DNA of 64,000 nucleotides from Intoshia linei. Its lineage: Eukaryota; Animalia; Orthonectida. Position 1 is the stretch's first letter; every line of letters starts with the position of its first letter. A program made the position numbers and the translations under genes. The notes beneath the pieces are model-generated. The model was not told the origin of the DNA, ran no database searches, and was given only the letters and a program-made list of their open reading frames with translations. The stretch is taken from positions 1 through 64,000 of the forward strand of contig LWCA01000028.1 in the NCBI GenBank assembly GCA_001642005.1, read 5' to 3'. Positions 30,903-64,000 of the stretch are shown here, one piece after another.

Positions 30903-32643
30903 TTAAAAGTTGAGTAATAATAAAATTTCAATTTTAAAGCTGGACATTGAAAATTCCAATAATGATTCTGAATCAATAAAAGTTTATATGGAAATGTATA
31001 AATTTCTAGATAAACAGAACAGTAAAATATAATTTGCGTCAAGTCAAATTTAAAATTTCATAGTATGTAGTCAAAACAAAAATTTACAAAATGAGATACA
31101 TGACAATTTTACATCTAAAGATTTTATATTTACCTATATTAAATTTTTCAATTTTATCACAGATATTTGGACAGAAATTACTACAATAAGAAAAAATACG
31201 TTTCAAATTAAATGAAACAAATAGATACGATATAAACGTATTTCCAAAACTTACAAGTTGTAACTTGGCAATTACAAGTACATTAAAGTTAAAGTTTATA
31301 CAAAATTAATACAATATTAATTCAATTTCATGTGAATAAAGTTACAAAGCCAAATCGAACTAATTTTTTTACAAAGCATATTGTAAACATTTCCATTCTC
31401 TTGTTATTTTTATAACAGGCAATAACAACTGAAAATACGATACTTGTTTATATTTATATTTATATGCATATCGGACGTTAATCAATCAATTTAGTATGTA
31501 TTACGTAAGTTACATATTTTTAAAAATTAAATAAAGTTTTAAATTTGAAGCTTATTCTGCAAAAAGCCCTTTGTATGTTATCGAATTTAACACGTAAAAT
31601 CAATATATCCATTCAGCTTTATTATGGCACCAATACAAATGTAATACACTCCTAGTCTGAGACTAAAAGTTAGACTACAAGTCCTTTTTAACGATATTCA
31701 TTTTTTGTATATAATTTGTATGAACCTTTTTAATTTTAATTCAAAAATTTTAAAAATATTGGTTTATAATATATTCAGTTATTTTTTATATGAGATGCGT
31801 AGATTTCTGAGGTTAAAATTTTGTATTTATCAACTGTAATAAGCTGTATCAGAATAATATTTTTTTAATTGTAGGACCGTTAATTATTTCAAATTTTTTA
31901 TTTTACAAATAATTAATTGTTAATAAAATAGTTTAGAAATAACAAAATGTATACTAAAGTTTTTTAACTTTTTTCACCGTGAAGGTGACTGTCAGATTGA
32001 AATGTTTTATGTGTTAACTATCGACTGTAATTTTTTTAATAATGATGAGATTTTTAAATTACTGCAATGTTAATGACTTTCAAACGCGTTTCAGAATATA
32101 TTTTATTTTTTTAAATTTTGAGTCTTATTTTAATTGCTATTGCAATCGCCAGTGTGATCGTGATTGCTGCGATACCTATAGTGTCGGTGTTAATTGTACT
32201 CACCACTGGACTAGAAAAAAACTACTTTTTATGAGTTAATTTAAAATGTCTGGAAATATTGTATACCGTGTTACTTGATCATAATTAAGTGCAAAGTTGA
32301 GATATTGTGATAAGGATCGCTAAGGATCAAGGAAGTAAGACTCGCGAAGCATGCCTACTGACAGCACACACATTAAGGTTATATAAATAAAGGATGTAAT
32401 TTTTTTAGGTTTCACAGCGAAAAGTGGTTGAATATGTCTGTACCATATCTAATAAAAGCTAGTAAGCAATAAAACTAAGAAAATGTGGACCGCAGCGGTT
32501 GAAAATGAAAATGAGTGGTTGTTATAAAAGTGTGGGACTTAACTAAAATTGTTGCTACAACATGACAATATTTATATTATATTGTTTATACTTTACAATT
32601 TGTATCTATGTGTCAAATTTAAAAACAAATAAAAACATTTAAA

Positions 32644-35600
32644 ATGTCTTTAAACCTACCAAGTTATAACAAAGTTGAACAGGTAAATATAAATCCATTT
32701 CATCACAAATATAATATTACTATGTTCATAAATTTACATTATTTTAAGCAAATATAATATATAAGAATATACATTAGACTGGTATAAAATGGGACCCAAG
32801 AGTCGCATAAGACCGGTCGATTAATTATCAAAATTATTTAAATTTTTATATTTGTTTCAGTAATTACATCAATTACTCTGTAATAATAAGATTAGTTTTA
32901 AGACCCAAAAATATTTTTTTTGTATGATCCTCAATTTTCATCTATCCGGGACCTGTTGGCTTTCCGCGGGTATAATATCAGTCTTATATACAATAATGTT
33001 TAAACTAAAATATAAACATTTAAAAAAAATTTAGCTGCGCAAAGAGAAATTTCATAAATCTCATCATTTGTATGTAGTTAATGAAACGAACATTGTTTCT
33101 AATTCAAAGTCCGGTATAGGGGGAGAAAAAATTTTAGAAACTGCCCCTGTCAATAATCGAAGTGAATTGGAATCATGTAAGAGAAAATCAGAACCCACAT
33201 GGTTAGCATTTGATAAAATGGTATTTTAACAATACATGATATTAAATATTTAAAGAAAATTTACATTTTAATGACAAACTTTCATATTTTTTAAGTTTTT
33301 GAAAAATTCAGTAACTGTTATTGTAAATCAGTGTTTCCTAAGTTGAAAATCCCAACCTTTTTTATGCTAGATTCCACTTTTACTCTTAAAAAAATCCCAG
33401 GCCCCACTAAAAAAAATTCGTGCGAATTATAATGAAATAATGATAAAGACAATAATAATGTATTTATTTTTTAAAATTAATGAGACGATTGAGCCCGACG
33501 ATTCTGACAGAGTTTATTACTATTAGGTACTAATGTTGTAAGCTTTAATCGTAGATCTCTCCTTTTTAAAATTTGTAGTCTATGTATTATTTTTTTCAGT
33601 AAGTCTAAAACTGCACTAAACCCGCATTCTGCTAAATAAGAGGATGGAAATGGCAACAAAGCAACCCTAGCAAAAGTAGTTATAGTCGGATAATTTTGCA
33701 TATACTCAGTAATTTAGTTAAATTTGAATTTAATACCCCACGATCATTAAAGATATATTTGTTTTTTGTCATTTTAATAATACAATTAATTGGGTTAAGT
33801 ATCACATAATTACTTATAAACCTGAGAATATTGTATAAAATTAACAATAAATTAATCTAAAGTTTTTATATTCCTATAAATTTGTAATATTTCTCAGGTT
33901 CCACCAAATTTCCAATGTCCCACTAAAAATTTTGTCATTCCCCACCAGTGGGGCCTGGCCCCACGGTTGGGAAACACTGTTGCAAATTATTATTACGGTA
34001 CCGAAAAAGTTACAAGAAAAAAAATTTGAAAGTTTAGAAATGCAGTGGTCGCTATAAAAGTGACCAATATTGAAGGTTTTCGATTATTTAGTTTTTTTAA
34101 GTAATTTGTGTGTTTATTGTGAAGATGAAAATTGTTGAGGTTTCAATTTTAACACTGCTGATGATTTAAAAATTTTTTTTTTTCATTTTTTAAAATAAAG
34201 CCAATTTGTGGCTAGGAAGGTGATAATTTTTAAATTTGGAATTTATCTTAGTTTTTGCATCGGAAAAAACTGACTTTTAATTTTTGTTCATGAAATTTTT
34301 GGGACTCACATTTCTCATTAAATGGTTAGAAAGAACAAATAGAAACACATTTTTAGCAACTTTTTTTACTTTACATATGAGTAGTACTTATTTAACATTT
34401 ATTGTATTGATTAATAAATTGTGTATGAATATCAAAATTTGTTGAAAATTTACTATAAAACTGAAATTTAATTATTTATAAGGATTAGAATATTTTGTGT
34501 TTTTTTTATAAAAATTTGCAAAAAAAATTCTGTTTTGTATTTAATTAGGAGACAAGTTTTTAATAATTTTTTAAATTTTATATTTTTATAGGTTTTGTCT
34601 TTTAATGCATTTTTCCAAGAATCTGTTGTAGAATCTCAACATGAAAAATATAGAGTTAGAAATTGCAAAGTATATTTTTACCTTGAAGATGATACTATCC
34701 AAGTCGTCGAAGAAAAATACAAAAATTCTGGAATGACACAGGGTATGTTTTACAAATACATTCCATTGTAATTAAATTTTTGAATTATGTGTTAATTTTT
34801 AGGTACAATTCTAAAAAGGCATAGAATAAAAAAACCAGCTCCATATAGTTATGAATATTATACTGTGGAAGACTTTAATGTTGGCGATGAATTACAATTG
34901 TACTCTACAAAATATAAATTGGTCGACTGTGATAAATTTACACACACTTTTTTGACTCGATTAGGTGTTAGAGTAAATGCAGATGAAGATAGGGATAAAA
35001 CTGTACCAAAAGATCCGTACGTAGAATATCGCAAAAAGGTAAACTGATGTCCATTATCTAGAGCAGGGCTTTTTAACCTATAAATTTAGCACCCCGTTAG
35101 TCAGATCAATGATAATGACAATATTTTTTCACCTAATTTTTAAAGATTTTAAAGATTCAATAAAAATTGGGTCAAAAAAACCTCCTTTAAAAACCCTACC
35201 AAATTTTGGTTTTATAGGTTTACAAAATCTAAATATGCTGTGTGAATATCTTCTTTTTTTTAATGTCGATATTGACACGACATTTATCACGTGTGTATCT
35301 TTTTTGAAAATATAAAATAGGTTGATGATAACATGAAAGCAAAACGACCATATGAATCACATGATACTCTGCGAAAGTTTATACAATTTGACGGAAAAAT
35401 TTTGAGATTTTTATGTTATTGGGATGACACAAATACAATGTTTGGAGATAAACGAAACTTGATACTTAAATATTATTTGAGCAATGATACTATAGAAATT
35501 GTTGAAGTGTATAAGCAAAATTGTGGAAGAGATGCGGTTCCCATATTTTTAAGAAGACAACCTTTACCCAAACACTTGGGTCGACTTCAAGCTCCAGGTT

Positions 35601-37756: not shown

Positions 37757-40700
37757 TTAGTTTGATTCACTTTCACTGGTTCCCAGTTGCGTATTTATAT
37801 TACTTTTGGGTTTTGATGTTTCAGCTAGGTTTCTAAAATTAAATAAAATTATGACCAAAGCATTAAGTAAAAGAAATAATTACACATCTTGAGTTTCGTT
37901 AGTTTTTGAAACATCTGAATCAAAAATAAGTAATTTTTCCTCTTTGTCTTCATCCGCGTCACTAGAATCACCGCTAAATGGCCTAAAAATTTAAATTAAC
38001 AAATTAACATGTAAATTAAATAATGCATAAAAACAAATTAAGTCTACATGTTTTTAGATCGTTTCCTTTTTTTCATTGATTTTACTTTTTTCCTTCTTTT
38101 TCCGTCATTTTCATTTTCTGAAGACGAAGCAGAAAATATATCATTAATAATTTTCTTCTAAATTTTAAATTTTAATGCAAAGTTTACGAGCATTCTAAAT
38201 TTTTCTGAAACAATTCAGTCGTATGTTTATGATTAAATTAACTAATGCAATATAATAATACCGATAATAATATTACATACATGTAAAATTTTATATTCTT
38301 ATTTCAATAATATAAACCTTTTTGTTTTCATCTATTTTTTGGAAACTAGCTACTAGTTTAGACCTTTCAATTAAAGCAGCTCTTGTTTCCACATTTTCTT
38401 GCATTTTTTGATCCATTTTTAACTGTTCCTTTTTCTATTTTACAATAATTATTATATTAAAAATTTAAAAATATGGGAAAAAATAACACGATAACAAATG
38501 AACAAAACAGGCTAATTCCTGGTTAACGGAATAATTGGTGCTGAAAAAACCTTATCACGTTAACGAGGAATTTTTTACAAATAATGTATACATTAAAACA
38601 GTGGTTCCAGATTGGGGTCCAAAATTATATACTCGGGTCCGTGAAATTCAAATAAAATATACAAATTTTTGATCAACTTTTGTTTATTTTTATGGGAGAA
38701 TTTTTAATATTTAATACATAGTTTCTAGATGTTGATTATCCCATAGCCTAGACGACCCCTACATAATTGTTTCAAAAATCCCACTTTTATCCAACCATTA
38801 ATAAAATTTAATAAAAAATAGAATTTCAAATCCTAAGAAAGAATAGACTTTTACAGATATTTTTTTATCCCATATCGGTTCATAAGTATTATAAGCTCAC
38901 ATAGAACCCAAGTTAAAAAGGTATACTAATTATTAAAATTATAAGAATATTTCATTTTTTTGAAAAATTCGATTTTAGGGAACCTTATGAAAAAAATCCA
39001 CTTAATCAAATCACAATATTTAAATATTTCACAATAATAAAAAATTTGATTTTACCTACCCTTCAGGGAAAAATACCTTTTTTTAATATTTTTTTGAAAA
39101 ACACGATTTTACCAAATCATATCAGAAAAACCACTTAATCCAACCCCAACGTAAAACTCCAATATTACCAACGCTTAAGAGAAATGTCCTCTTTTTCCAA
39201 TATTATTTTGAAAAATCTGATTATACAAAATCTGATGAGCAACAACTTCCTAATCGAAAACCCAAAATAAAAAATAAAATTTTACCAACCTCAATAAATA
39301 AAATTATATAATGAAAAACTTTTGATTTTCATTCCATTTAACCTATATTTGCAGGTCATTTACTTCGATATAATCAACCATTATTATCATCATTAATCAA
39401 GAAAAAAATAAAAAATTTTTACGTATCTAAAGCTTAAGGCGCCAAAAAAGGTTTAGTATAATTATGATGCTAGTCATTTTAAGTTAAAATTTAACCAAAT
39501 ATTTGTAATTCAGAAAAATTCAATGGTATTTACAGAAAATAACGGTAATACCTCCAATTCAATTCTTTTGTCCAAATTCTCTTGTATAGTCTGTCGACGT
39601 ATTTTCTCTTTTTGTTTACGATCCTGATCTAAAGCTCTAGATCTCTCTAGTTGGTATTTTGTTTGACTCAATAAATCGGAACAATTTCTAATTAATTTAA
39701 AATTAGAATACATTGCAGTTAGGATATTAGGATTATTATTATATTATATTATTATTATATACATTGAAATTAGGATACATTGCATTTAAACGCCTAGTGG
39801 ATACGTTGTACATAATACACCAGTTGGACCACATTGACTGTGTCTGTGAGTCTTATACACACTATCTTAATTATCAACATCAAATTTGAGTATAAGACAA
39901 AAAGACCGGTAACAACTCGTTAAATACGATAATAAATATTAAATATTAAGTACAATTAAAATTACTGATGTTGAATTTTGGCCATGTTGAATTCAAACCT
40001 TTCTTGTACATCATGATTCATTAACAAAGAAAAAATTTTCATGGCCAAATTTAAATTTAAAATGGCTTCTTCTACTTGAATTAATTTGGACCTTTCATCC
40101 TCCATATAATTCCGAGCCATTCTCTGCAAAACTAGTGCTTGATTATAAATAATCATGGTACTAGTAGGCTGAATATGTCGAGCTTTTTTCAACACCGTTA
40201 AACAATCCTTTAATCGATTAAGACGCATATACGAACGCGCCAGGTACATTAAAATTTCAATATTAGGGTACTTGTAAAATTTGGCCAAACAATTTTCATA
40301 CATTTGAATAGCAGCCATATAATGTTGTTGTTCAAAATATACATGCCCAATATTAATCCATACATCGCTAAACTCGTTTGTTGCTTCTCGAACTTGCGAA
40401 AAAACATCTCTCGCTTCATTAAATAGGCGACGTTGAGCTAAAAGACAACCTATACCATGAGCCGCCCAAATATTTTGATCGTCATTTTTCAATACAGTAG
40501 TATATAATTGCATGGCTCGATCGTAGTGTCTTTTATCCTTATCCCTATCTCGATTTCCAGACTGCAAAGACTGAAGCCAAATATTTCCTAAAGCAATCAT
40601 TGAATAAGCGTCGTTTTTGTCCGTTTTCAATAAAATTCTTTCAAATTTCTTTTGAGAAGCGCCCCATTCATTTTTAAAATAATGCAAATTGCCAATTAAA

Positions 40701-43700
40701 CTCCAAGCTTCCTTGTCGTCTTTATTATATTGTAATGCCGTCTTGTACCAATCGGATGCATTGTAAATTTGACCATTATCACGAGCCATACTGCCTAATC
40801 GAAAATAGCAATCAACATATTGCGGACACTTTTTTAAAACTTGTTTATAAACATTGTTAGCCTCGTTGAATTTATTTAAAGCTTCGCAAGCCAGTCCGAT
40901 ATTATAATTTACGGTATGAATGAGAGACGAAAAATATTCATCTTTTTTAATATCCAACTGTGTTTCTGCGTACATTTTGGCTTTTTTGTAATAATTTAGT
41001 GATTTTTCGAAATTGTTTAAATTATAATGCAGAGACCCAACATTGTTGAGAATTTCGACAGGTACCTCAATTTGCATAACGTTTGTTAAAGTTTTTATAA
41101 GTTTTTCATATGTGTCTATCGATAGACTCGGATCGAAATTTTCCAAAACTTGAGCATACTCGATCCAAGCTTCAATATCATCATTATGGCATTTTGTAAT
41201 ATTTTCTAGGTATTTTCTCGCTAAATTCATTTTTTCGTGTTTCCCAGATTTAAGATATAAAGAGGCCAACATTTTCAAAGTTTCATAATTATCTGGAAAT
41301 GTTTTCAAAATTCTCTCTAATGCTGCAATCGCATTGTTGTATTCATGATTATTAAGATACATTTGAGCTAAGCCAAAATAAGGCAATACAAATTTACTAC
41401 TACTGTATTGATTACACTGAAAGTAATATTGAAAAGATTTTTTGTAATCCTTTTGAATGTGATGAACTTTGGCTAATAAATAACAACTTTCTGCTTTCAT
41501 TGATTCATTTTTAGTATTCTGAAAGGCGTGGATTGCAAGACTGTTTACTTTCTTATAATCTTGTTTATAGAAAAAATGGTTCGCCAAATGATTTAGAATC
41601 ATGGCTCGGTTTTGATCTAAACTGTATGCTTTAGTTAACAATTCAACCCCTTTTTTAACATTTTCAATTGTTTTTGAGTTTGTTTCAATAAGTGCCAAGC
41701 CAATTAATGCACTAACGCAATTTGGATCTAAATCCAGAGTTCTCCTGTACGCAATTCTGGCTCTATCAAAATTTTCTAATTTTGTAAAACAATGACCTAT
41801 TCCTACTCGAATGCAAGGAGGTCCATTAGGGATTAGTCTTAAAACTTTTCTGTAAAAATTTAAAGATTGTTTATAATCTTTTGCATTGTATAACAAGCAT
41901 GCTTTACCAAGCAATGCAGGTACGCACCTTTGATCCTAATAAATGTATATTATTAGAAATTAATACAAAATAAGCACATTATCCTATCCCACGATTAAAT
42001 AGCTCGAGGCCATCCGAAAATGAAAACCAGGCGCCCCAATTTTTTTGAGAACAATTTGTACAATGAACAACATGTTGCCATATGCACCTATCCAAGAATA
42101 TTTTTATTTTTTTTAATTCGAAATTTGGAAAAATGAGGCCCATTGGACCAAAATTTATATTTTTTTAAATTTTGTGGTTAAATTCGAAGTAAACTAGAAA
42201 CAAGGATAATGAAGGTTGTTTTATTACAAAATTTACTTAGCCGAAGATTTAAATAGACAAATTGTTGAAATAAAAAAAACAGACCGGAGGTGGAGGAAAG
42301 TGCGGCCTTCGAACAGTATATGTTTTCTCACCTCTGCACCAGACCATTTAAAATATTTTCAAAAAATGCCAAAAATTAGACACAGAAATTGGTTTTCGGA
42401 GATATTTTATTAGAATGTAAATTAATAAACTCAGTTTGCACTCATGTATCATCTATGAAATATAAATATTACTCTACTTTTGTAAAATTCAACCAAAATT
42501 AGTAATCTTTTTGTTGGTTTTAAGGATAAATTTATATTTATCAAAGTACCATAATTTCGCAACATCCCACAAAAAATATTCCAAAATATTACGATGTTAA
42601 GAATTATTATTATAATAGTAACATTAAAATAGAATTATATATTGTAATTGTATAAATATATTTCTGTGTTGAAATAAAAATTAACTCGGCCCAACCATAC
42701 TCACTCGTTTATATTTAAAAAATATCCCCCCGTATCCGTTGGAGGATTACACTTGAAACAATATAAGCGTATATAAATACCTTTGACAAAACATAATTAA
42801 ATTGTGTTTCTGCTTGTTCCACCTTGTCACCTCCAATTAAACAAAAATAAGCCCTTCCAAGTAAATGGTTCTAAAAAGTAAATGAATACATTGAAATATT
42901 GTTTTTACAATATTTAACCCGATACAGTACATGCAGTACCATATACAACAATGAGTGCTGGCAATCAATATAAATGTTTCCATAATTGTATATATTCATT
43001 TTTTTAAATAAACATTTTGTAGTAATTAATTTTGAAAAAAATTCACTTTTACCAACTATTTTGAGTAAATCGAATTTTATCAACCTAGTTAATTAGTTAG
43101 TCCAAAGTTTAATACTTTAAAGAAAATTAATTTAAAACATAGCATAATAAATTATTATAATGTACATTATGTTAGTTTAGATTTTTAAATTTTTTTTCGA
43201 TTGCCAGCACTAACCACGACTAAATTTACGGACAAATATTTTGCAATTTTTACTCGCCCTTTTCTATAGAATTTCTGATTAACCACTAGTACCTTCCTAG
43301 TAATTTAAATTTTTTTATAGTTAGCCCTAAATTTTATACTCCATATTTCATCATGAGCAAGGGTGGTCGATTTTCTGGTACCAGCAATTTTTTTAAATAT
43401 ATAAATAACTAATTTTTAAAATGTAAACTAAATACAATAACGCTTGTAAGTCTCTTAAAATTTATAATATTTAGAACTAAGTACTCGGAAAAAAGTATTT
43501 TTCCTTCATGGTTGCTAAAATATTGGAAACACATTCTCGTAAGGTTTCGTAAAATTGAAATTTTTATAAAAATATAGGAAAAGAGATTTTCCCTTAACTT
43601 AAGTCTTGCTAAAATTCCATTTTTTTTGGATTGGATTAAAAGTTTTTTATCACAATGTTTTTTGTAAAATCGTAAGAAAAAGATAATTAAATAAAGGGCT

Positions 43701-45472
43701 TGAAAAGGTATGTTTTATTAAATATTATTAAATTTTACTAATGGTGGGATAAAAGTGGGATTTTTAAAATAATAATTTAGCGGTCGTCTAGGCTTTAGGA
43801 TAAAATCCAAACATCTGGCAACTTTGCAATAATGTATTTTACAAAAATAAAGTAATTTTGCTGGTAATAATAAGGCACGTGCTTGTAACACATTTGACAA
43901 TGGTCAAGAGGTTCTCAATCTTTTTCAAGAATCATCCCCTAAAGTTTAGAAGAATAATTAATTAGTTTAAGCTAAAGCGAAAATTAATGTATATCGCCAG
44001 TGGCGATATATGTTCGCCACCTATAACGGTTTCACATTTTATCGTTGTATTTTGATTTTTTTCATAAAAAGTTTTATTTATTTTGCTTCTTTTTTATGTT
44101 TAAAATCACTTGAAATTTATATAAAAAAGATTTAAAAAAATTCAAAATCATTGGATGTGAAACCAATAATATTCAATATTTTAAACAAATATTTGACGTA
44201 CGAGATACACAAGTTTTGTATATGAAAAAAATTATATTTAACAAGAGGAAAGAACTCAAAAAAAGTATAAAAATAGTAATAAACGTTGAAATTTCATCTT
44301 TTTAAAAAAAAGGGTCAATTTTTGGAGGTAAAAAATATTTGTAAAACAAATATAGTTAAAGAAATAATTATGAAAATTCGTCTCGCCCATTGAAAACCTC
44401 TGATGAGAATATATTAACCATTACACATAGGCAGAAACCATGGCAGTAGAGTTGTGCTAGTGGCTATATGGCCGAGACCTACAATCATTCGGGCTACTTT
44501 TTAATTTATTAATAGGTAATGTTGGAAAATTTCTTAAATATGTCATAATTATAATGACCAATAAGATTTACAATGTTATTTTCAATTTTTGGACAATAAA
44601 CGATCGATTAAACAATGTATAGACGTGCCAATTTAAAAAGAATTAATGGGGCCTACATTTCCAATTCTAACATCTGATCCGGGCCTACCGCTATCTCTCC
44701 ACAGCCATTGTAGCAACCAATACAAACAATATATGTTAAGTAATCAATAATATATAAATTGGCGCCATACAAGTCATGAATATTAAAAAGGCGTTTTTTC
44801 CGCCCTACCCGTTGTAGTCGTCTAAAATAATGTAGAATGTCCGCAAAAAATTAAATTAAAAATGTAATCATGTTTCAAAAAATATAATAGTTTCATTCTT
44901 ACACGACACCGTGATACTGTACATGCAAAAATCTAATCCAAAATTTTTACTCCAAATCAATATACTGGCAATAAAATTAAAAGATTACAATGTCATGAAT
45001 ATTAATTTTATCAGCAATGGTGTAATTTTGGGTTGCTTTTTCAAAAAAAGTAGTTTTTTTACTGGAATCTTGTTCACAATGACCCATTTTGACATAATAA
45101 GCTGCAAGCAAATCTAATGCTTTCATTTGATCATCTTCAAAATTATCATAGGAAATGTTTGCAATTTTTGGAGCGGAAGTTAAAATGACTTCAAACGCTT
45201 CATAATTTTTTTGTCTGTAATATTCCAACTAAAATTATTTTTATTACTCTTAATATTAATAATTAAAATATTTAAATTTTTTAATTATAATTACGGCCAA
45301 TTTTATCCAAATGTGCAATGGAGCAATTTCTTGTTTTAAAATATTTAAAACTTCGCTTCCAGATGGTAAATTCGTATATTCCAATTCGATAGACTATTAT
45401 TTAACTTTTATTTAACCAAAATAAACACATTACCTCGCCTTGAGTGTTTCTTAGAGGAATTTCAATAGACAT
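37757..45472 (-). CDS. CTR9: PAF1 complex subunit CTR9 (TPR protein, spliced)
   Basis: [48 protein letters not shown] and [22 protein letters not shown]. Acidic/basic C-terminal exons extend to 37757. Confidence 0.96.
38599..39400 (+). mobile_element. hAT MITE (TTTTACCAA tandem-repeat family) in a CTR9 intron
   Basis: CAGTGGTTCCAGATTGGGGTCC terminus shared with the 20781 copy, and the same ~30-nt repeats. Right end unclear. Confidence 0.6.
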
Positions 45473-47789: not shown

Positions 47790-49038
47790 TTCTTGACGCG
47801 TTCTGGTTAAATTGTACTAGACACCTGTTTTATCGCATTCCACAGTGAATTCGTGATTCAATAGAATTATATTGGGTTCTAGCAGCATATAGCCCTTGCA
47901 CTGGTAGAGTTATATGTATAGTTAATAGGTTATAAAAATATTACATCTTTATCATGCTCCAATAATTTTCTATTGGATTTAAAACTGGACTGTTAGGAGG
48001 CCAAATTATTAATTTTTCTCCATTAATAGCATTTTCTGATAAAAATGTCCTACTATATGGTCATACATGTGGAAGGTGAATCGTGCATGAATTTGAAATT
48101 GTTTTTAAATTCTTCACTCTTTGAATTGAACCATGGAAAGTAGTTCTTCTCCAAAAACTCTGTGTAACTAACTATAAAAATTTAAACATGCCAAAATAGT
48201 GAGTATTACAATTTAGAATTTAATTTTACGCCACTTGGAATTCGAAATGGTCCTAACACTTGACTATCAAGTATTACAGCCCAAAACATGACCCCTCCTC
48301 CATCTTTTTGGCAACGCAATCTAATCGGAACTTTAGCATCATTAAGTACCCAGCCTCTTGACCACCCACCCGGTCCATCTAAAGTTGCACGGCATTCATC
48401 AGTGAACATAACCATATAGAAATTTATCTTTAAATTGACTTTAACCCAATTAAGACGTTTTACTTTATGAATTGGCTTTAAAATTGGTCTTTTCGTAGAT
48501 TTTTTGACATAAGAAATGGTTTTTAATACCCTACAACGAGTATTTCTCGAGAAATTGTTATGTTACAAGTTGTAAATAATTTGGAACTAGTGGCAAGTGG
48601 TGTGGTAGATATTTCTCGCCTTAATCGAGATAATTCTCGCAGTGTCATTACTTTTTTTTGCATATTTGGACCTATCATTTTAATTATTTAATTTTTTGAT
48701 GGGTAATGAGCCCATTTTTTAATTTTCGATGGTCGCGTTTTAGAACTTTGGATATAAAGAGTTGTCTTTCCTCTGGCCAATAAGTCTGTTATTTGACTTT
48801 TTTCGTCATTCTTTTGTCTCATTTCAAATTTGCCTAACAAATTGACACACTAATTTAAGTATATAAACAATAATATGTGAATGAAAAGTTTTTTTTACAA
48901 ATTAAATTTAGTTTATTTAATGAATAATATTAACATCAATTAAAAGCCACCTAATTACGAAACAAAAAATTAAGTTTTCATTATTCCTAAAGTTTATTAG
49001 ATGAATTTTAGTGATCTGCCTAATAAATTAACACACTG
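47790..49038 (-). mobile_element. Tc1/mariner relic, probably DD37E (TRT) family
   Basis: TA|CAGTGTGTTAATTTATTAGGCA terminus at 49038. Degenerate transposase motifs FTDECRATLDGP.GW, GGGVMFWA, FMHD and WPPNSPVLNPIENYW. Confidence 0.85.
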
Positions 49039-49137: not shown

Positions 49138-50930
49138 ATGACAAAAGACATTTACTTGGATAAAAACATTCAGATATGGGCTCTATTTCCAATCACTCTT
49201 GTTACGTTGTTGTTCAGTGTTATCAGGCATTACGCCACCTTTTTGTTTACCAATAAATCTCCAGATAATCTCAAACAGATACATGACACGTACCATTTTT
49301 TAATATTCATAATATATTACGTTTTAATAGACAGGTAGTCAATAGATGCCAAACACTTCGCAAAAACTTTGGATATATACCTAAAAGGGTAAATAAGAAT
49401 GTTTATTTGTAGTTATAAAAAAACTTATTTGTCTTGAAAATCACAGAAATTTTTCGACGCGTGTATAGATACATTTTCTCTAGTTTTATAAATAACTTGT
49501 TAATAATTATAAACATCAAGTATAATTTTTTTGAGGTTTATCGTTATTTTAAACTAAACCATATTTAAAGTTTTTAAATTCATTGTTTCTACTTTTTTGA
49601 TTTACGTTCGATATAATACCTTTAATGTAGGCCTTTTTAATGAGATTGGATTATTTTGCGCTACGAGAAGATGCTTATCTGAAATTAAAACAAAAAAACA
49701 GTGAAAACCCTACACCTCAAGGTAAAACGTGTGTAATTATATAACAGCATTTTTAGATCCCATGGCCATGATGGATATGATGAAGGGCAATTTTTTCAAT
49801 ATATTTTCAATGATTGTTATTGGAGGTTGGGTTAATTGGTTTTTCTCTGGGTTTCTAGCTAGTATGTCTATTTAATTTTATTTAAAAACACTTTATTTCA
49901 GCTAAAGTTCCTTTTCCTTTGACTCATAAATTCAAACCCATGTTACAAAGAGACATACAACTTAGATCTTTGGATCCTTCTTGGTAATACATTGGAATAA
50001 TTATCTTATATTATAATATTAATTAATTACTTATATAATGTGTTTTGTTTGTCTATGTGTTATTGTTTATTTCAATAACTACCAGTCTTGGTAGTGTTGG
50101 TAAGATAAATTCCAACCTCTATCTTACGGGTGAAAAAGCCCAATTGTCCTTTTTTGAAAATCAAACGAGTTCGAGAATTTAAAAAAATATACTCTGTGAT
50201 ACGGATTTTAAAATTATAAATTTAAATTTAAAAAAATATATCTTCAAGGCTAAAACCTTAAATTACCCTTTTTTTTAATGAAAACAGTCCTAGAATTTTA
50301 AAAAATTTCAATCTGACTAAGTGACGTCTCCACGGTCAAAAAAACATTTTAGTATTACGTTATTAGTTATATGTATGTAGTACAAAACCGTCAACCTTGT
50401 TATAATATATTTTATATTAAGTTAGAGGTACTTCTAAACTTAAAAACACCGTGCTGTATTGAAGTTATGGAATATTAATTATATATAATTATTTAGGGTC
50501 AGTTCAATTTCATGGTGTTTTTTAAACTTTTTTGGGCTTCGTAGTGCTCAAAATCTACTTCTAAATGAAAAATCCGGTATACATGTTATGTTTACATAAT
50601 TATCATTCAGATAGCTCTATGATGCCAATGCCTGGCGCTCCAATGTCGGGAATGCAAGATATGACGAAAGCATACAAAGTATATATTAGTGTGTTCAACT
50701 TAGTTAGAAACTTAGTACTTACTGAGTTTTACAAAATAAAAACTCAGTCAAAGTAGTTAATTAATTGTAAGTACTTTTTAAAAAAGTTTAACACAGTATA
50801 TGTAATTATTAACTTGTAAATATATAAATGATTCATTTAGTCTGAAAGTGAAGCATTAACCTTGATATGCCATAAATGGAAATTAGATAACATTGTGGAT
50901 GAAGTAATAGACCGTTTCGAGAAAAAATAA
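49138..50930 (+). CDS. EMC3: ER membrane protein complex subunit 3 (spliced)
   Basis: [53 protein letters not shown] and [19 protein letters not shown]. Confidence 0.95.
50004..50399 (+). mobile_element. Short Helitron copy in an EMC3 intron
   Basis: A|TC 5' end, internal match to 6385-6700, and decayed 3' end GTAGTACAAAACCGTCAACCTTG|T. Confidence 0.6.
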
Positions 50931-50951
50931 TTTTAATCGTTTAATTAAAAT

Positions 50952-52499
50952 TTAATTGTTAATCAAAGTTGATCTTGTTTCCTCCATTAATTGAGGCATC
51001 AGTCGTTTTTCTGGTGGAAGGTGGCTATTATAATTGAGGACAATTTCTCGATCGGCAGGGCAGCTTTTGCTAAATATTTCATCGTTATAAATGTGTTTCA
51101 AATATTCTTTAATTGATGGAAATTCATTGACAATGTCAGTTTTTTGAAATTGCTAAATAAACAAAATTGTAAGACTTGATTCGAAAATACCATCAAAAAC
51201 ACACGCGTATGGTGCAAAATCACAGAAAGACTACAATCCGAAAACGACAATTCGTCATTTTCAGCGAAACGTAGACCTTTCTGATGATTTTTAAGAAGGT
51301 GTTTGTCTATAGTGTGTAAGCTGTTCATTAAGGTTCCCAGCTTTGCTTCTGACCAAGTACGAACGTACTGCAAAAAATACTAAAATTATTATTATTTCGT
51401 TAATAGAAATTAACTCTTAGTGTGTTTGTATGCGTGGAGGCAGCATTGCCATATTCTTCGCTATTGATGCAATTGTAAAAATAGTCAAAACTATCTAGAT
51501 AGTCGTCAATGTCAGTCACAGATACGGCTGTTGTTTCTACGCCATTCTTTGTTATTTTCATAATGTGGCATTGGCTACCACTGCTGAAATTTCGTACCTC
51601 CTTCGGGGGATTTTCTTTGTTTCAAAATTATTTATATTTAAATTTTTTTTATTTGACAATATTACATTATAGTCAAAGGTGTTACAGTTATGTACCAGTA
51701 AAATTAAAAGAATTAGTTTATTTTTGTAAAATAAATTATTGCAGTTGCCAAATGTAATTTTATCTCAAAGCCTAGAAGACCGCTAAATTATGATTTTAAA
51801 AATCCTGCCATTAATATAATTTAATACAAAATACCATTTCAAGCCTTTTATGTAAAACCCCAACGCATTTACAAAAAACCTTTTAATCCAATTTTACCAA
51901 CCCTTAAGTTAAAGTAATATCTCTTTTCTTATATTTGTTTGAAAACTTTGATTTCACTGAAACCTCACCAGAAAACTGTTTATTTAACCACAAAATAAAA
52001 AACCAAAATTTTCTGAGTGCTGAGTTGTAAACATGTAAACAAGCGTGATTGTATTCAGTTTACAAATTCCTAAAGGTGTGGTGTAAATTATATATATATA
52101 TGCAATAGATCAACTAATACTCTTATCGAGAATTACATTATATAACATTCAAAATTCAAAAAGTAAGGTCACAATGTATTATCATTAAAAGATACCAATT
52201 GCAAAAGAAGTTACAGTAAGGTGAATAAGTTTATGTTTCATCATAATCATGAGAGTCATAAAATACGATTGACACATTTGACAGGATCCTAGCTTTTTCT
52301 AAAGCACTTTTATTTAACAAAAAAACAAGAAACTTTATCCATGCCAGCCTAAACTCAAAAATAGAATATACAAAAAACTTTATACCCTGACAAAATATTC
52401 AACACATGGTAAATCATTTGGCGTTTTTTCTTGTATACTCTAAAATAATTATGTATGTCCCCTGTAATAAATGTTTACTTGGTTCGCAACATCCGACAT
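50952..52499 (-). CDS. CLIC: Chloride intracellular channel (CLIC/EXC-4-like, GST fold; spliced)
   Basis: VEYFVR-AGMDK-KKLGSCQMCQSYFMTL (compare IELFVKAGSDG..GNCPFSQRLFM), ELSFSDCSL..ILHHTRV and FSKSCPADREI. Confidence 0.85.
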
Positions 52500-52649: not shown

Positions 52650-53006
52650 TTATTGCGGTAATCTTGACTTGGATAAATAATCCATAAACCTTGACGCTTC
52701 TAAAGATCGTTTTCCTAAAAAACGGTTGAATCGCTCGTCCGAATTTTCGATTCGTTCCAATAATCTTCGCAGTTCTTCAGATGCTTGTGATCCATATTGA
52801 TTAATGCTTCTCGTTTGCATAAACTCATCATTTAGACGACCATTAATTACTTTTCCATTTGGGTAACCGACGTCATTATAAAACTGCTTCCACTTTCTAA
52901 ATATCGGTAAAGCGACTTTGTTAACATCTGGGTCTGAATTTTGTGAATTTACTCCAACAAAGATTAAAATATAGTAGAATTTCATAAAACAATTTTTCGA
53001 AATCAT
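52650..53006 (-). CDS. Putative secreted neuropeptide precursor (amidated ...FNRFLamide)
   Basis: 118-aa intronless ORF with a hydrophobic N-terminus (FMKFYYILIFVGVNS), RK and RR sites, and a G-KR amidation/cleavage signal. Confidence 0.6.
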   Translation of the reverse strand: MISKNCFMKFYYILIFVGVNSQNSDPDVNKVALPIFRKWKQFYNDVGYPNGKVINGRLNDEFMQTRSINQYGSQASEELRRLLERIENSDERFNRFLGKRSLEASRFMDYLSKSRLPQ

Positions 53007-53223
53007 TATTAAAATGAAACTTAATGAAATCTATTGATTGCAACTTTTATTAAGAATGTAAATAAACGACACCACTTTTATTAATTGAAATGAGCAAAGT
53101 AATACATGTATAATTATAAACTAGGTACTACTGCAGAACGGATCAGAAGTCAAAATCGATAAAAGAACATACTAAAACATTTAATTTACACATGTCAAAA
53201 TATACACAGAAATTAAAACAATG

Positions 53224-56200
53224 TTAATTTTGATGATTCCCCATATTAGCATTAAAAGGACCTGGAGGATAATTCAAACTCTTCACATCATTAATATCCA
53301 TTTGGGCTGGGTTGAAATTGACAGGGTTGTAATTTGCATTATTTGAGTAAATGTTGCGGTTTAATGGCACGTAATTGTTAATAGGAATAAAATTTCGAGG
53401 ATACTGGTTTTGGCCACCCAGATAGGGTTGCTGCATTCTGTAATATTTCATATCGTTGGGGTAGTAATTTTGTGGAACCTGGATTGGTTTGTTCATAAGA
53501 TTATTTTGTGTATTTGGGTTAAAATTATAAGGATATGCAGGACGAGGTTGGTTCACCACAGATTGTCCGTAATTAAAAATTTCTGGTTGTCTGTAAAAAT
53601 CAAAAGACTGGCTGTATTGGCTCATGACAATATGCTGGTTTTGAGCTCGTTCATTTTCTGCGTACAAGTTATTATTATAAATTTTTTCTCTGTATATGTT
53701 CTCATTTTGTGGTTTTTCCATTTCGTTCATAAAAAGTGGATTTTGTCCATGATACATATTGTCATTTTGCAAATTTACTGGTAAAAATTTATCTGCTTTG
53801 GTATCAGGGCTACTTACTATGCTAGTATCAGTATGCATGTTTTCATCTCCAGCTCGGACATGGCTTTTATGCTTTCGTGATGAAATTATATTAGCTACCC
53901 TTGCTTTATCATGCGTTTCTTCGTTTTTGACATGTTTTGGAGCACGGTCATATGATTTTAAACTGTGGTTATTTTTACACAAACAACTCTTTTTACATTT
54001 ACTTTTATGGCGACGTTCACCCTTATGTTTAGAATGTTTGTCGCTACCTTCACATGTACTCGACTGACTAAATTCTGGCGTATGTTTTCCATGAGCATTC
54101 TTATCATGTTTTGACTTTTTACTTTTTTCACTTGGGACATTTCCTGATTGAGCATCTAAAAAATAATTTCAATAAAACAATTTGATTTTGAATTATATCA
54201 TACAAATTTTTAAAATGTATATATGAAAAAATTATGGTCAAATTCTATTAGTGCGACCATCAAATGTTAATTACCCAGTCAATTAAAAAATTATCTGTGG
54301 GTCTAATGTTTTCAATTGGTAGAGGTACCGAGTTAATTATACATTTTTAATTTTGTTGTCTAGCTTAACCTAGATGCAACGGAATATAAGTACAAATAAT
54401 TCAAAAATAAACGACCTTAAAAAAGTAAAATTAACAAACTATTTTATTTTAATGTACACTATCTGTAAATAAAAATAAACAAAACTTTTGATAACATAAT
54501 AATCCAGTTTTACATTTGCCATAATTAAAAAATTTTTTTAATTTGTTATTTTCCAAACTGTGGGTTTCAACTCTTTTATGTCTTACCTGTAACAATTAAC
54601 TAATTAATTAATTTCCACAACATGGAATACACTTAAGTGATAATGTTTCATAAAAGTAGTATAATTTGTACATCCAAGGACAGTTTAAACCAAGACGAAA
54701 TACGAGGCGTTCTAGTAAAAAAGATTGTGGGATTTTTTTGTCAAGTCTTTCAATTGCCTAATAATAATTAAATAAAGCAAAAAAAATCCCGCTCACAATC
54801 TTTTTTACTAGAACGTCTCGTAATCCGTCCTGGTTTAAGCTGTCCTTGGTACATGTTAGGGATAATTATCCCTATAATATACAGTACATTGTATTTGCAT
54901 GATAAAAATATATACAAATTAATAAACGTTTATCAAACTAATTAATTCACAACAAAATATCCTTTTATGTCAAACACATAATTTTTAATTTACAAATTGT
55001 AACATTAAACTTAAAAATACAATATATCTGACAACTTATTATTGATAACTCAATAAAAATAATTGCATTTCTCTGATAATGTATTTTTGTCGTTATTGCG
55101 AAAAATACAACCCAAATTAATAAATAAATAATAATCATTAAACTACATTATATATAGATGAATACATTTTTGTAAAAAATTTACAATATATGTAATAAAA
55201 ATTGGCTAGTCTTCGTCTCAAATTGTAATTTTGGGCAAGATTTTGAAATTGAAATTTATGATAATTTTAAAATCTATATTAGAGTGTATACATTTTTAAA
55301 TTCTAGGACTCGGTTGATTTAAAAAAAGGATATATGTGGTTTTTGACCTCAAGGACTCAATTTCTGATAAAATCTCAAACTCGAAAAACTACATTAGAAA
55401 TTTGAAAAACTACGCCTCTACCTTTCTTAACCCTTTCCCTTTCAATTTTATGTACTATCACTACACGTCTGAAATTAATAAGGCCGTCATTTACGGAAAA
55501 ATGAAATTTTACCAACTACGAAAGCTTTAAAAGATTGAGTAGTTCCATATTAACCCGTGTCACCCTCATCTACATGCATACTATGATAAACAATTACTAG
55601 GTGGTAGTTTAGGATTCCATTCTGTTACCCCTTTTTGTTTCATCATTAACGGGACAATTTTTTCAAAAAAGTATCGCCTGTAACTATTTGATATATTTTG
55701 CAATTCATAATTATGAATAGACTTCAATCTCATCATGGCTTGAACATGTCTAAAATAAATTAAAATAAAATAAAAAAAAAGTAACTTCATAACAGTTTGC
55801 TGGTAATCTTGATTATTGTAAAGGGCAGCCAGAAAATGTTGTTCCAAGTTTCCATCCTCCAAATTAAAATCAGTAGTAAAGTTAAAATTATGACTTTTAT
55901 AAAGACTATCGACATCAGTTTCAATAATATTAGAAGTGGAACTAAAATTATACGAATTTGCATCATTTGTATGAATAGGATTATTCCAGGATTTATCGGA
56001 AAACATGAATGGATTTAAACCGTACGAATTTTTATTGGTAAATCGATTTGAACGTTGATTCAAAGATTTTTGATCAATATTCTTAAAAAAAATTGAAGAT
56101 TCAGTGGATTCTGTTCCAATGTTTGTTGCGATTTTATTAATTTGAAAAATATTGTTACAAATGGAAACAAAGAGACTTCCGTAAAGAGGATCCGTAATCA

Positions 56201-59200
56201 TGGAGTCGCTAAGAATTTTTAAATTTAATTCAGTGTCTTTACTGTTTTCATCTTCTGGGATAGTTTTAGATATATGAAACTCATCATTAGTTGAATTTCG
56301 TATGAAATATGCAAACACTCCGATAAAAATTTTTTGTTCGTCCTTTTCAATATCGTACATAGATAAATTCAAAACATTAATACATTCTACAAGTTCCACT
56401 TCCAAATAATCCAATGATTGTGGCAGAATATTCAAATTTTTAGTTGATTTGGAAAATTCAAAAAGGGCCTTATAAATTGGTTTCACCAACTTTTGTTTCA
56501 AACAATAATTCACAGAATCTGAAAGTAATTCATTTCCAGCATAAGAAGTTTCCATGTCCTCATTATCATCTATATAAATCTTTTGAGATTCTGAACAAGT
56601 TTCATAATTCTTTTCCTCTTCCACTTCTACAGTGTCATTATTCTCACTTTCGATAATTTGTAATGTATCCTCCTGGTCTTCATTGTTTGACTGGACTTCG
56701 GTTTGGTCGTCGATAGATGTTACTTCAATGTCATTGTCTGTTTGAACTTCTTCCTGGTTGTCGTTAGATTGAACATCTTCATTTACAGAAACATCAATTT
56801 CATTGAAATCGTTTGTATCAATTTGATTAGAACTGTAATCACAAACATTGCTATGTTGCGTTTCGTCATTTTCATCTCGACTTTGACACTTTTCACAAGG
56901 ACATTCTTTTTCTTTGATGTCGTCATCCGTTGCCGACACTGCCACAGAATCTGTCTTACTGTTATCGATATTGCTAGAATCGATCATATGAGTATACTCA
57001 GAAGAACACTTTGGTTGTTTATTCTTGACGACTAAATCCATGGCTAAATCGCTTTCATTCTGATTAATTAAATCGCAATTATTAACAGGATCATCACAAG
57101 GTACTGCACTCATAATTGAAACATTTGAATGAACTGAATAAGAATCAAATTCATCTTGGATAGACGTTTTTGAATATTCAAGGCAGTAAATGTTATTTTT
57201 GGATATAGAATCAGATGGTTGGGCTTGATTGGATACAATCCAATTCGACTCACCTTCCACTTGCGTTGAAACTAGTCTTTTATTCTAAAAAAAATTATCA
57301 ATATATAAACACTAGGGCGTTACATTTTGTCCACAAGAAAATACATGGTCGCATAATAATTTACATTTTTCTTTAATTGTATAGTCAATACACTCTAATA
57401 TTTGCAAAAATGGACTCCCACACGACATTTAATATTAATTAAAAACTAACTTAAATTAGATTAGAATAGTTAAAAGGCAAATTTATTATCACTCAATATC
57501 AAGACCCTTAGGCGGTTTTCCTAGTTTTAAAAATTATTGCAATAAAATACTAAAACTTCACAACAAAATTAAAGCCAATTACACAATTAAATTTAGTACC
57601 GGATACTTGAAAAATACATAATTAATTAAAGTGTCACAATTTTTAAATGTTAATTTTAGGCTCTAAATAACATTTAGTAACAATTATAATTGTTATATAA
57701 GATCAAAATGTCACGTAATATTCTATACTAATGGTGGCCAAACACGGCCCGCGTAATCATGCTTTCATACTTATGTTTACATTCAAATTTTGAAATTTAT
57801 TGTTTACATTGTAAATTTTACATGTCACATTCTATTTAGATAATTAACCGTCTATTTTTGCGCATAAGATAAAATTTTCTTATCTTTATCTCCTTAATAA
57901 AACAATTGTATATTTTTAATTAGATTAACTAAATGCAATGATATAAAAATTAAATTGTTTGGTTGGTTTTATCAATAGTTGAACAAAAAAATTATTTTTA
58001 TTATTTATCAATAATAGACTAATTTTTTTTTATATTTGATCAAATTTTCTTTTATTGTTTGCAAAAAAATAATTATAAATACGTACAATTTTGAAACTTA
58101 ATAATTAAAATATACTCCAAAAATAATAATTGTTAATTATTCAAATGGAATTTTGACTCTTTAATATTTAAATAAAGCAATCAAATTTACAAGCCAAAAT
58201 AGAATTTTAATCAATTTAAATTGTTTCATGTGTATTCACGATATTTTATCGAATAAAATGAGTTTTTTGAACTCAAATTCAAGTGAATATCAAGACTCTT
58301 GCTATAAAAATTTAACACAAAACAATTGATATTCAAAAAAATAAATTTTTCAAAGTCAAATTGGAAAAACTAGGCCTTCGTTTTACAAAAATTTTTCAAA
58401 GAGTAATACTAAAAAAAGTTTAGCTACCACTGCAATATGCATGGGCGAAGGTGAATTTAAACATTTACCTCCAATTCTTTTGAAAGTCGTTTGATTTCGT
58501 ATATAATCATGACAAGTTCATTGAGAGGAAGTAAACGAAGATTTAATTTGATATCAAAAATACTCTAAAAATAAAAATTAAAAAATATGATTTAAAATAC
58601 AAATTATAATTACAAAATTTTCGTCATTACGAATGTCTGTATCTTTGTTATACCTCGATAAAATGGATAACCAATAATTATCATCGCTAAAAATAAATAC
58701 ATACATTACAATTTAAAATACCGTTTTGATTGATTCGTAAGTATTTCTTCTAATAAAAATAAAAATTATCGAATAAACTTGATAAAAACCTAGGCTGGAT
58801 ATTAACCGATCTAGTGATAGACTACTATACATTTCACCCGTATCTAAAGCAGAAAACTGATTGACATTTTCTCCTTCAAAAATTTTTTGATCGGTATCAT
58901 ATGAAGTAATCAAAATTCCACCTTCAAATATATCCGAAATAGTCAATGTTTCATCTGGAACGTCTTCACTAAAAATAAAAAAGTGTTATTTACACTAAAA
59001 AATATTACAAATCCAGTGGTTCCTGAATAGCGATAGGAGCTAAAATGAATTAAAATACAAAATCTTAATAATCATTTTAGTTCATGTAATGTGACGCCAC
59101 TTTATGTTTAAAATTGTGATTCTCAAACTAAAATGGTTACTGCAGTGCACTGGTACGAGAAAGATTAAATGAATATCATAGTTTATTTGCAACAGGAGTT

Positions 59201-60634: not shown

Positions 60635-61485
60635 TAATAAATTTTATCTTTTCTTTGTAAAGCTTAAACATTTATAATGTCATGATTCCATTTAATATTT
60701 CTAATTTCAAATTTGTTAAATTTATTCATTATAATATATTTTTCTTTTTTTTACATACTCAGTTTTTATGGTATTTTTTGTATACATTATTTTCATGATC
60801 CATCAAATTAAAAAAATAATTTCCAATTTCATTTGCATATTTCTTGAGATACCAAAAAAACAATCATTAATTGCTTTTTTTATTGTATTCTGTATCAAAT
60901 CTACTGTTAAAAAAATTTCTGTATAACATGCATTGCACATTCATAACCTTTGTAAATTAAAAAATATCGATTGTCTTTATGAGGCGATAATTTTATTTTT
61001 GTTGAAAAATGGCCGAATACGATTGCGATTTAATGATTACGATAAAATGATGGCTGAGATGCGGCAATGGCCGCCAAGAAATTTGAGATTGAACCGTCAT
61101 ACATTCTTAACTGTAAACAAAAGAGAAACAAAAAATTTCATTGAATATTTGACCTAAGTAAAAAACCTGTATGACAAAATAGCGCAACAAATTTGTAGAA
61201 ATTTTGAATTTTTAAAAAAACAAGTTGTTAATTAAATTCATCATTACGGATATTAAATAAATGTACTCGTCCTAAAAGCTATGACATGTTTGCCTAACCC
61301 GAATTATAATGAGGACACTTTCAATTTAGATATAATAATGATCAAGGATGATACCAGCATTGCTGTTTTATTACCAGCAAAATTAATCAATTTTTTGAAT
61401 ACGATTAAATTTTGATGTATAATCACAATTTGAATTAATTTAGAATAAAATCTCTTATTATCATTTCATATTATCGTTCAACAGC

Positions 61486-62085
61486 ATGAATTCATTAAAA
61501 CACTTTAAAAAAGACGGAGTTAATTACATGCAATGTTTAGTATGCTCAAAAAGAATCAAATACATAAATTCTCATTCACACATGGCGTCATTGAGGAACC
61601 ATTTAAAAATACATGGTGACTTGGACAATGTTTCTGTCACGCCAAAAATAACGAGTATTTTAGCAATTAAGAAAGATGAAAAATTTCCAAATTTGCCACA
61701 TATTCCATATCATTTTGTTAAGAATATACAAGATAATTATTCTTCACTATATAGTAATTACTCTGGAATGATTGATATTCAATATGTTGATACTATAAGT
61801 GGAAAGTGGAGAGATGACTACAATAAGTTGTATCAATTGGTTAATGGTCATAAAACCCTTAGAACTTATCATTGCAATCCGAAAATTAACTTTAGAAAAC
61901 CATGTAGCATCTCAAATGCTAGATGGAACTCTAGAAGTATATACTGCCTCAAAGCTTTTATATTAAACGTGGATAGAACGCCAAATATGATCGAAGCGTG
62001 TAATTTCATATCTTACGTGTGGAGCAATTGCTGGTTTACGTGTCGTTTCCAAAAAGACACCTACAAACCTTTGGTAATTATTTAA
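61486..62085 (+). pseudogene. Internally deleted hAT-like transposase with BED zinc finger
   Basis: CLVC..I.Y....SLRNHLKIH (zf-BED) and FRKP.SISNARWNSRSIYCLKAF, an ARW motif typical of hATm-like transposases. Candidate right TIR AAAAATCGCCCTA ends at 62922. Confidence 0.6.
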
Positions 62086-63239
62086 ACACAATAGTTTTTC
62101 GCCAAACTGAACGTCTCCGTAATCAATGTTATCTTAAATATGGTCAAACTAAGATAAGCCCTCGGTATATTCTACTCATACATAGTTATAAATATTTATA
62201 TACAAATCGTATAGTAAAATTCAGTATCCTTTTGAGCACCCTCGTAGAGTTTTCAAATAAAATATCATAAATTTATCTTTATCATTATGGACGAAACTGA
62301 TTTAAATAGATATAAGTACATTAATACTATGATCAGAACATTAGAAACACCTCAGACTGTAATATGATTGTAAAAATATTACAAGTAATATGAACGGACA
62401 AATGGTCATTCATACTCTTCATGATACACATAAAAATAATTAAACAAAACAATACAAAGAAACTTTTTAAAAGATAATTTTAAAAAATATTTGATTTTGT
62501 ACTACAACAAATAATACACATTTTATACATCTTTATTAATACTTAAATTAGAGATCGGAAACCTTTTGCATCTAGTAAACCACTTTTCTATTTTTTACAG
62601 GTGTATTAGAAATAGTAGATATGACTAACGGGTACTAAATTTAAAAAAGGTTATGAAACCCTGAATTAGATATTTACGGACATAAGACAACGCTGCTTGT
62701 TCTACAACAACTATCTAATAATGGCAATAAAATTATGTTTTAAAATTTATAAAACGGTGCTACAACCGACAAGGCCACAGAAATATTATTATTATGGCGA
62801 ATAAGAGATTTCACTATTTCAGACAGAGACAGTATTTCATCACTGTTTAGAAAAAAATTTAACAAAAAAAACAACACTACGTGAATTTTTTTGTTTTTAT
62901 GGGTTAAAAAAAAATCGCCCTAATTATAACCTATCAAGATCTGATTAACCAATACGTAGACCAACATTTGACAACTACATTGGTTATCAAATCAGCTATT
63001 CCCGGACTCACAAAATCAATTCAACGTTAATACTTAAAGTTAAAATAAGAGATTTTGCCAATCTAAGGTATCTAGAAATTTTCAACACAAAATTAAAAAA
63101 AATTAAATTGGTATATTCTTCATACTCAAAATCACTTTCCTTACTCTTGACAAATAAGATGAAAGCAATGATTGAATTTTTCCAACGTTTCAATTATACC
63201 AATCTCTACAAATATCACTCCATTTGATATTATTATAGA

Positions 63240-63647
63240 ATGTTGACAGAATTTAGAGCCTACGCGTCATCCAAACAGCTGAAGATGGTGGCCGCTTGTG
63301 TAGACTTCTTGTTTATGGCGTCGCGAGATAAAACTTACACAGCTTTGAGACTGGCCGCAATAGCAACAAGGTATTATGAACATGCATCCTTATCATTGAT
63401 GAAGGAGTTCATGATTGAGGGACGCATGGATTCATGTTTATGGTTTCATTCAGTGGCATCCACAAATGTATCAGACGAGTTGTGGAAGATAATGGAAGAT
63501 CCAGGGCTTAGTGAAAGAGACTCTCTTATACCATATTCAAAATCTATGATTATAGTAGCAAGAAGTCCATACTCATCGTCGGCGAATTCTTATTCTTATG
63601 TTAGCATGGCAACGTCCATGATTTCTATAGGACAAAGATGTTTATAA
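63240..63647 (+). other. Endogenous viral element: rhabdovirus nucleoprotein (N) fragment
   Basis: Motifs collinear with vesiculovirus/lyssavirus N: AACVDFLF, YTALRLAAIATRY, VSDELWKIMEDPG, DSLIPY and RSPYSSSAN. The segment is intronless and visibly more GC-rich than its flanks. Confidence 0.8.
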
Positions 63648-63679
63648 AAATTTGTTAAACGACATTGAAATTTGTAAAA

Positions 63680-63859
63680 ACATTAATTCTAGTAATAAAT
63701 ATATATTTCATTTTCAGCAATTACTCGTGTTTATCACAAACTTTATGTCTCAATTTAGTTATTGTTTAGTTACGCAATTTTTTTATGTATTTTTTAAATT
63801 TTCGTCTCTAAGCAATATTAGTACGTTAAAAATAGTGTCGCACAGTGCGACTCGCACTA
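63680..63859 (+). mobile_element. Terminal segment of the hATw-like family
   Basis: Reverse complement of 13209-13370, ending ...TCGCACTA. Confidence 0.7.
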
Positions 63860-64000
63860 GTTAAAATCACATCTTAGATTTAGAAAAATTTATGGTTCCT
63901 TATTTGAAAAGACAGGCATAGAATTCAATTAAAGACCCTCGCAATATATCTACCGCTATCGGATAATATACGAACTTACTTTCGCCTTTTAATTACCGAT

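Follow-up and report, generated by a model that had tools for sequence, protein, structure and literature searches.

A probable endogenous rhabdovirus nucleoprotein fragment among likely transposon remnants in the Intoshia linei (Orthonectida) genome

Orthonectids are simplified parasites of invertebrates. One analysis has placed them inside the annelids (PMC6543705). The window analyzed here, a 64,000-nt stretch of a 73,510-nt Intoshia linei contig, contains no N bases (no gap) and is AT-rich and gene-bearing throughout, with animal genes that include kelch, sugar transporter, ATG13, DOT1, DM10, TPR, 7tm_1 (rhodopsin-type receptor), and EMC3 genes. Of 120 stop-to-stop frames of at least 62 aa in the window, a single one matched a viral family, namely, the rhabdovirus nucleoprotein (N) frame described below. 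Elsewhere, a frame at 52653-53030 (-) has a hydrophobic start and an FLGKR site and by eye resembles a neuropeptide precursor, with no Pfam hit, and two long low-complexity frames at 53227-54168 (-) (314 aa) and 55584-57284 (-) (567 aa) matched no Pfam family.

The N frame is open from 63228 to 63647 (+), 139 codons from stop to stop, with an ATG at 63240 and its stop codon at 63645-63647. The original prediction had delimited this open reading frame correctly, and every motif that it quoted lies inside the frame. Its claim of an elevated G+C content also holds, no other part of the window being as GC-rich as the N frame (0.40, 165/408, versus 0.27 for the whole window). All 420-nt windows that are equally GC-rich overlap the N element, and the highest value elsewhere in the window is 0.374. 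The best-fit GC segment spans 63256-63617, with its left edge at 63198-63278 and its right edge at 63429-63663. The features of the locus are listed in Table 1.

Table 1. Features at and around the nucleoprotein fragment (positions in the window)
Feature	Position	Strand	Remarks
BED-finger/hAT-transposase-like frame	61486-62085	+	Atlas 0.90-0.93; lead only
92-codon open frame, ends in TGA 63225-63227	62949-63227	+	In register with the N frame; coding-like
Rhabdovirus N fragment, central core	63237-63644	+	Stop-free; both ends lost; roughly N residues 200-330 (whole N, 487 aa)
AT-rich junction zone, N fragment to repeat	63645-63692		Holds the stop codon; no N signal past the stop
DNA-transposon-like repeat end, likely hAT	63693-63859	+	Terminal inverted repeat (TIR) at about 63813-63859

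Decayed mobile elements are abundant on the contig. Interspersed repeats, with copies that are 66 to 91% identical and in many cases inverted, occupy 5200-7600, 10400-13200, 16800-17200, 21200-21900, 31700-33700, 38700-39200, 43400-43900, and 50100-52100, and a Tc1/mariner-like transposase fragment lies at 48209-48562 (-) (HTH_Tnp_Tc3_2, E 0.021, below the cut-off). The BED-like frame sits 1.2 kb upstream of the N fragment; its top rows in the Atlas are zf-BED, Hermes DBD, and DUF659 clusters, and it gave no Pfam hit. Just 5' of it, broken coding-like frames with no Pfam family occupy 60927-61415 (+).

On the right side of the N fragment, 63693-63843 matches 13358-13211 of the window at 138 of 152 positions (91%), and the G+C content of 63648-63860 is 55/213. 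The second repeat copy (13207-13812) is about 600 nt long with inverted ends (13211-13241 and 13783-13802) and carries a short frame at 13365-13778 (-), which presumably ends in a hAT dimerization motif; no hAT family was found in this frame with Pfam. Paired TIR ends are seen solely in this 13-kb copy, with a single end to the right of the N fragment and no partner inverted-repeat end upstream of it in the window. No 8-bp target-site duplication was recognized around the N fragment. The 8-mer that follows the repeat end occurs 15 times in the window, and none of its three other copies past 50 kb is then followed by a repeat end. At 63837-63861, the hairpin GTCGCA-CAG-TGCGAC with CTAG 5 nt on and then a T would also fit a Helitron 3' end, and the hairpin with its CTAG is the sole such site in the window. 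The sequence favors a TIR end over a Helitron because 63693-63843 matches the inverted-repeat element. The N stop codon likely belongs to the flank rather than to N. The frame that continues past it, 63631-63711 (+), reads DVYKNLLNDIEICKNINSSNKY and matched no Pfam family. It may resemble the C terminus of certain hAT transposases, and if this is true, the N piece directly abuts a transposase end.

The rhabdovirus N identity proposed in the original prediction is borne out by profile and pairwise comparisons. The HMMER comparison that it had suggested, of frame 63228-63647 with the Rhabdo_ncap profile (PF00945), gave 39.8 bits (E 3.6e-10; profile positions 179-291 of 410) against a Pfam gathering cut-off of 26 bits. 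With phmmer, spring viremia of carp virus (SVCV) and vesicular stomatitis virus (VSV) nucleoproteins made up the top 7 of 8 PDB matches of the fragment (SVCV N, E 1.7e-5, 28.3 bits; VSV N, E 0.008, 19.7 bits). Fragment residues 16-121 align with residues 189-295 of VSV N in the phmmer alignment. The conserved N motifs are intact, the S-P-Y-S-S core motif is in register with rhabdovirus N, and the Arg preceding it aligns with Lys286 of VSV, an RNA-binding residue. Against a profile of seven N sequences, the fragment scored 85.3 bits, a value biased upward since that profile was made from the fragment's own best matches, and shuffled sequences reached 6.1 bits at most (350 of 500 shuffles scored). 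Genuine N members, each left out of the profile, scored 107 to 184 bits on the core. The profile match covers 63240-63596 (iE 3.2e-24) and tblastn matches cover 63231-63638, with none elsewhere in the window, and the hhalign probability for the N core is 98.8%.

An exhaustive search of 1.84 billion protein representatives returned nine matches at E ≤ 0.001, namely, seven rhabdovirus N proteins, the locus's own gene model, and one unnamed tandem-repeat protein, and no better match to a cellular or transposon protein was found in it. The tandem-repeat protein (E 4.4e-12) aligned through seven short stretches, does not contain Rhabdo_ncap, and was set aside. The best score of the fragment in the ESM Atlas was 0.89, to unrelated proteins and with low recognition. 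Judged by its sequence, frame 63228-63647 is a piece of a rhabdovirus N gene and not a working N. The viral part spans about 63237-63640 and holds about 130 of some 480 residues, with about 70% missing relative to a full-length N (about 420 to 500 aa). At 63240, the ATG corresponds to an internal Met of N, at about residue 200, and not to the viral start.

The predicted model of the fragment is poor (mean pLDDT, 54), and Foldseek with this model found nothing at E ≤ 0.001. In this structural comparison, of a type put forward in the original prediction, the matches ranked 1 to 10 in PDB and BFVD are all rhabdovirus N proteins, at E values of 0.26 to 2.3 and in a ranking that leans partly on sequence, and it is the model of the closest relative (pLDDT, 70) that shows the two-lobed helical N fold and matches VSV and rabies virus N (Foldseek, E 7.8e-13 to about 1e-11; E 9e-15 by sequence). 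A wide VIA-align search with the pLDDT-54 model gave no match at Z ≥ 5 and no N among the 50 matches listed, an outcome that is uninformative with so poor a model. It is the sequence comparisons that carry the N identification.

The seven N relatives are those of Himastelon rhabdovirus 1 (WOC29233.1), Eptesicus fuscus rhabdovirus, psilorhabdoviruses 1 and 2, sphaeridiorhabdovirus 3, Fujian dimarhabdovirus, and Wenling dimarhabdovirus 9. Three of them belong to Betaplatrhavirus by NCBI taxonomy, and five are firm members overall, with one more by name. The ICTV 2025 table places psilorhabdoviruses 1 and 2 in the genus and also lists a Himastelon rhabdovirus by name (PMC12451637), NCBI having Himastelon rhabdovirus 1 as unclassified; Wenling dimarhabdovirus 9 is unclassified. 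The seven scored 37.1 to 50.8 bits, versus 28.3 bits for SVCV N and 19.7 bits for VSV N. The original prediction had compared the fragment with VSV, and the N homology stands, but the viruses closest to it are betaplatrhaviruses associated with flatworms rather than VSV-like ones. In Betaplatrhavirus and Wenling dimarhabdovirus 9, the N core is colinear with the fragment, with one or two small gaps, and the motifs R-x-A-x-I-x-TR, G-L, PYS-x-S-M, and S-x-YS are shared. The fragment shares 23 to 28% amino acid identity with the relatives, which share 27 to 52% among themselves over the same columns. This low identity to the nearest known N agrees with the undescribed source lineage suggested originally.

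The genus Betaplatrhavirus was set up for viruses from cestodes, trematodes, and worm-infested animals, and membership is decided by whether a virus clusters with the others in a tree of L proteins (PMC12451637); the locus holds no L sequence. The host also differs, I. linei being an orthonectid: the betaplatrhaviruses are RNA genomes from trematode and cestode hosts, whereas the fragment is a piece in orthonectid host DNA. The placement of the fragment rests on scores because the tree of eight N sequences is unrooted, without an outgroup or a starred branch, and has a very long branch for the endogenous viral element (EVE). By score, the fragment appears nearest to the betaplatrhaviruses yet farther off than any member is, and it is not filed in the genus. 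No related loci were found in the viral contigs and metagenome contigs searched. A word-index search for relatives of 76 to 244 aa yielded none among five candidates, and its sole longer protein was the locus's own gene model; with the seven-sequence alignment, the same kind of search returned just two of the alignment's own members (7,998 scored).

The N frame stays open in 1 of 5,000 dinucleotide shuffles. In a neutral simulation, the probability that it remains stop-free was 0.064 at 0.10 substitutions per site and 0.016 at 0.15, and with indels (at an assumed ratio of 0.1) it was 0.056 at 0.05 substitutions per site. Because the frame is intact and its G+C content is retained, we infer that the insertion is fairly young (less than about 0.05 to 0.1 substitutions per site if neutral) or under constraint, an estimate that depends on an assumed mutation model and is weakened by ascertainment, intact frames being those that are found. 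If the insertion is fairly young, most of the divergence from known viruses would lie in the source virus and not in decay.

In an alternative reading, the fragment would have been co-opted as an expressed gene under selection, either as a BED-finger/N fusion or as a short protein of the N core begun at the ATG at 63240, and its product might possibly interfere with incoming rhabdovirus nucleocapsids. A fusion of this kind is annotated at the N locus itself as A3Q56_00514 (OAF71728.1, A0A177BBM1), a hypothetical protein with the automatic UniRef label "Rhabdovirus nucleocapsid domain-containing protein." The model is reproduced letter for letter and in frame by splicing 61486-61826 (341 nt) to 63239-63647 across a GT-AG intron of 1,412 nt (donor, 61827; acceptor, 63238). 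However, the fusion is probably a prediction artifact, because the BED-like frame runs past the donor, by 85 codons, and both splice sites look weak: the donor reads GTTGTA and the acceptor lacks a pyrimidine tract, as judged from the splice consensus. In addition, a better-looking acceptor at 62591-62600 is skipped. The 139 stop-free codons, the intact N motifs, and an AATAAA at 63694 are in line with a working gene, but a young neutral insertion also accounts for the open frame, and a single copy is on record, with a second protein not found. Co-option is therefore judged quite improbable. The wider proposal has the worm expressing the fragment, by itself or as a BED-finger fusion, or making piRNAs from it as antiviral memory, and is unlikely. 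The fragment would fail to form a nucleocapsid or encapsidate RNA and is most likely a passive fossil; on the model of the dog whelk element described below, it might possibly serve as a source of small RNAs.

The original prediction had the element begin near 62926 and its frame continue upstream through one TGA. The TGA (63225-63227) and the coding-like open frame before it are present, but the proposed start was not confirmed, a second stop in the frame falls at 62946-62948, and a viral origin of the upstream part lacks support. Were 62926-63227 the N-terminal portion of this N gene, decayed or strongly diverged, this would account for the shared frame with a single TGA between and for a stretch (62949-63224) that is open in only 21 of 5,000 shuffles and in 518 of 20,000 random window frames. 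Nevertheless, no frame of the 92 codons has N homology (hhalign probability, 0.15%), and adding them to the N core lowers the profile score from 85.3 to 81.8, a value that all 300 random window pieces equaled or exceeded. When 100 upstream codons were added in any frame, with an X at the break, 244 to 300 of 300 random window pieces scored at least as high. The comparison has power, as left-out relatives gain 55 to 109 bits, in seven of seven cases, when extended by their own 100 upstream residues. The upstream frame also has a host-like G+C content of 0.286 (79/276), unlike that of the core (165/408; Fisher P = 0.0015). An element enlarged in this way is very improbable. The frame at 62949-63227 matched no Pfam family and did not match the frame of the 13-kb repeat copy (E 1.9). 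It is a coding remnant, not recognizably viral; a transposase remnant would be a guess.

At the other end, a frameshifted continuation of N past the stop was tried over 60 codons in the three frames and rejected, since 60, 136, and 136 of 300 random pieces scored at least as high; the true downstream 60 residues of left-out relatives add 10 to 48 bits. Neither a rhabdoviral gene-end signal near the fragment nor a direct repeat of note flanking it was found.

In the assembly, the N sequence adjoins host genomic DNA without a break, and its right flank is a host repeat. Germline integration, as originally proposed, is the best reading because the sequence lies on an animal contig beside a host repeat. 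An assembly chimera or contamination, in which viral cDNA or EVE-bearing DNA of another sampled animal was joined to the contig, might be suspected from the abrupt composition step and from the repeat on the right side, a place prone to misjoins, but it is highly improbable given that an RNA virus has no DNA stage by which to enter a genomic library, that the left flank is single copy within the window, and that the window is gapless on a contig AT-rich and gene-bearing throughout. The fragment is thus most likely an endogenous rhabdovirus N element that integrated among likely transposon remnants. Its source would be an undescribed virus, to which the betaplatrhaviruses associated with flatworms come nearest.

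Rhabdoviruses have no DNA stage, and a DNA copy requires a host reverse transcriptase. Viral RNA would have been reverse transcribed in a germ cell by the enzyme of a host retroelement, a step inferred from established EVE biology because no retroelement was found beside the N fragment. End-joining or template switching may then have placed the cDNA in an intergenic stretch littered with transposons, and both ends of N would have been lost at insertion.

A lineage that is a deep sister to Betaplatrhavirus may infect orthonectids, recently enough for the frame to be intact, and may still circulate in Intoshia, with platrhavirus-like rhabdoviruses being viruses of endoparasitic worms across phyla rather than of flatworms alone; this is a tentative but reasonable possibility. 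Dheilly et al. saw rhabdoviruses in no members of their set other than the parasitic flatworms, argue for host switching among parasites that share a host, and place the flatworm rhabdoviruses basal to those of vertebrates (PMC9241645). Were a related lineage present in an annelid-derived parasite, this flatworm-parasite pattern would reach a second phylum. A germline fossil is a far better guide than a metatranscriptome to the true host of a virus lineage, and the fragment offers a concrete probe for a live virus in orthonectid RNA data. A virome survey of 31 phyla sampled Orthonectida (PMC11097642). In the literature covered, outside which most subscription papers lie, no work linking Intoshia to a rhabdovirus or to EVEs, no work pairing platrhaviruses with EVEs, no paper on A3Q56_00514/OAF71728.1, and no virus report for Orthonectida was found.

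An N-only EVE is a known kind of element, and the I. linei host and the virus lineage appear to be undescribed for it. EVEs derived from rhabdovirus N in arthropods have usually been described as lying beside LTR retrotransposons and in piRNA clusters. Like them, the I. linei fragment is a short, truncated N amid transposon remnants, but its flanks look like remnants of DNA transposons, unlike the LTR retrotransposon settings of the arthropod elements. In the dog whelk, an N-only rhabdovirus-like DNA sequence was judged to be a host-encoded EVE, which is reportedly ubiquitous and gives rise to piRNA-like small RNAs with a 5'U (PMC6085071). The dog whelk element comes from a mollusc and is absent from the matches of the fragment at E ≤ 0.001. 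Both elements are N-only DNA sequences in lophotrochozoan hosts.
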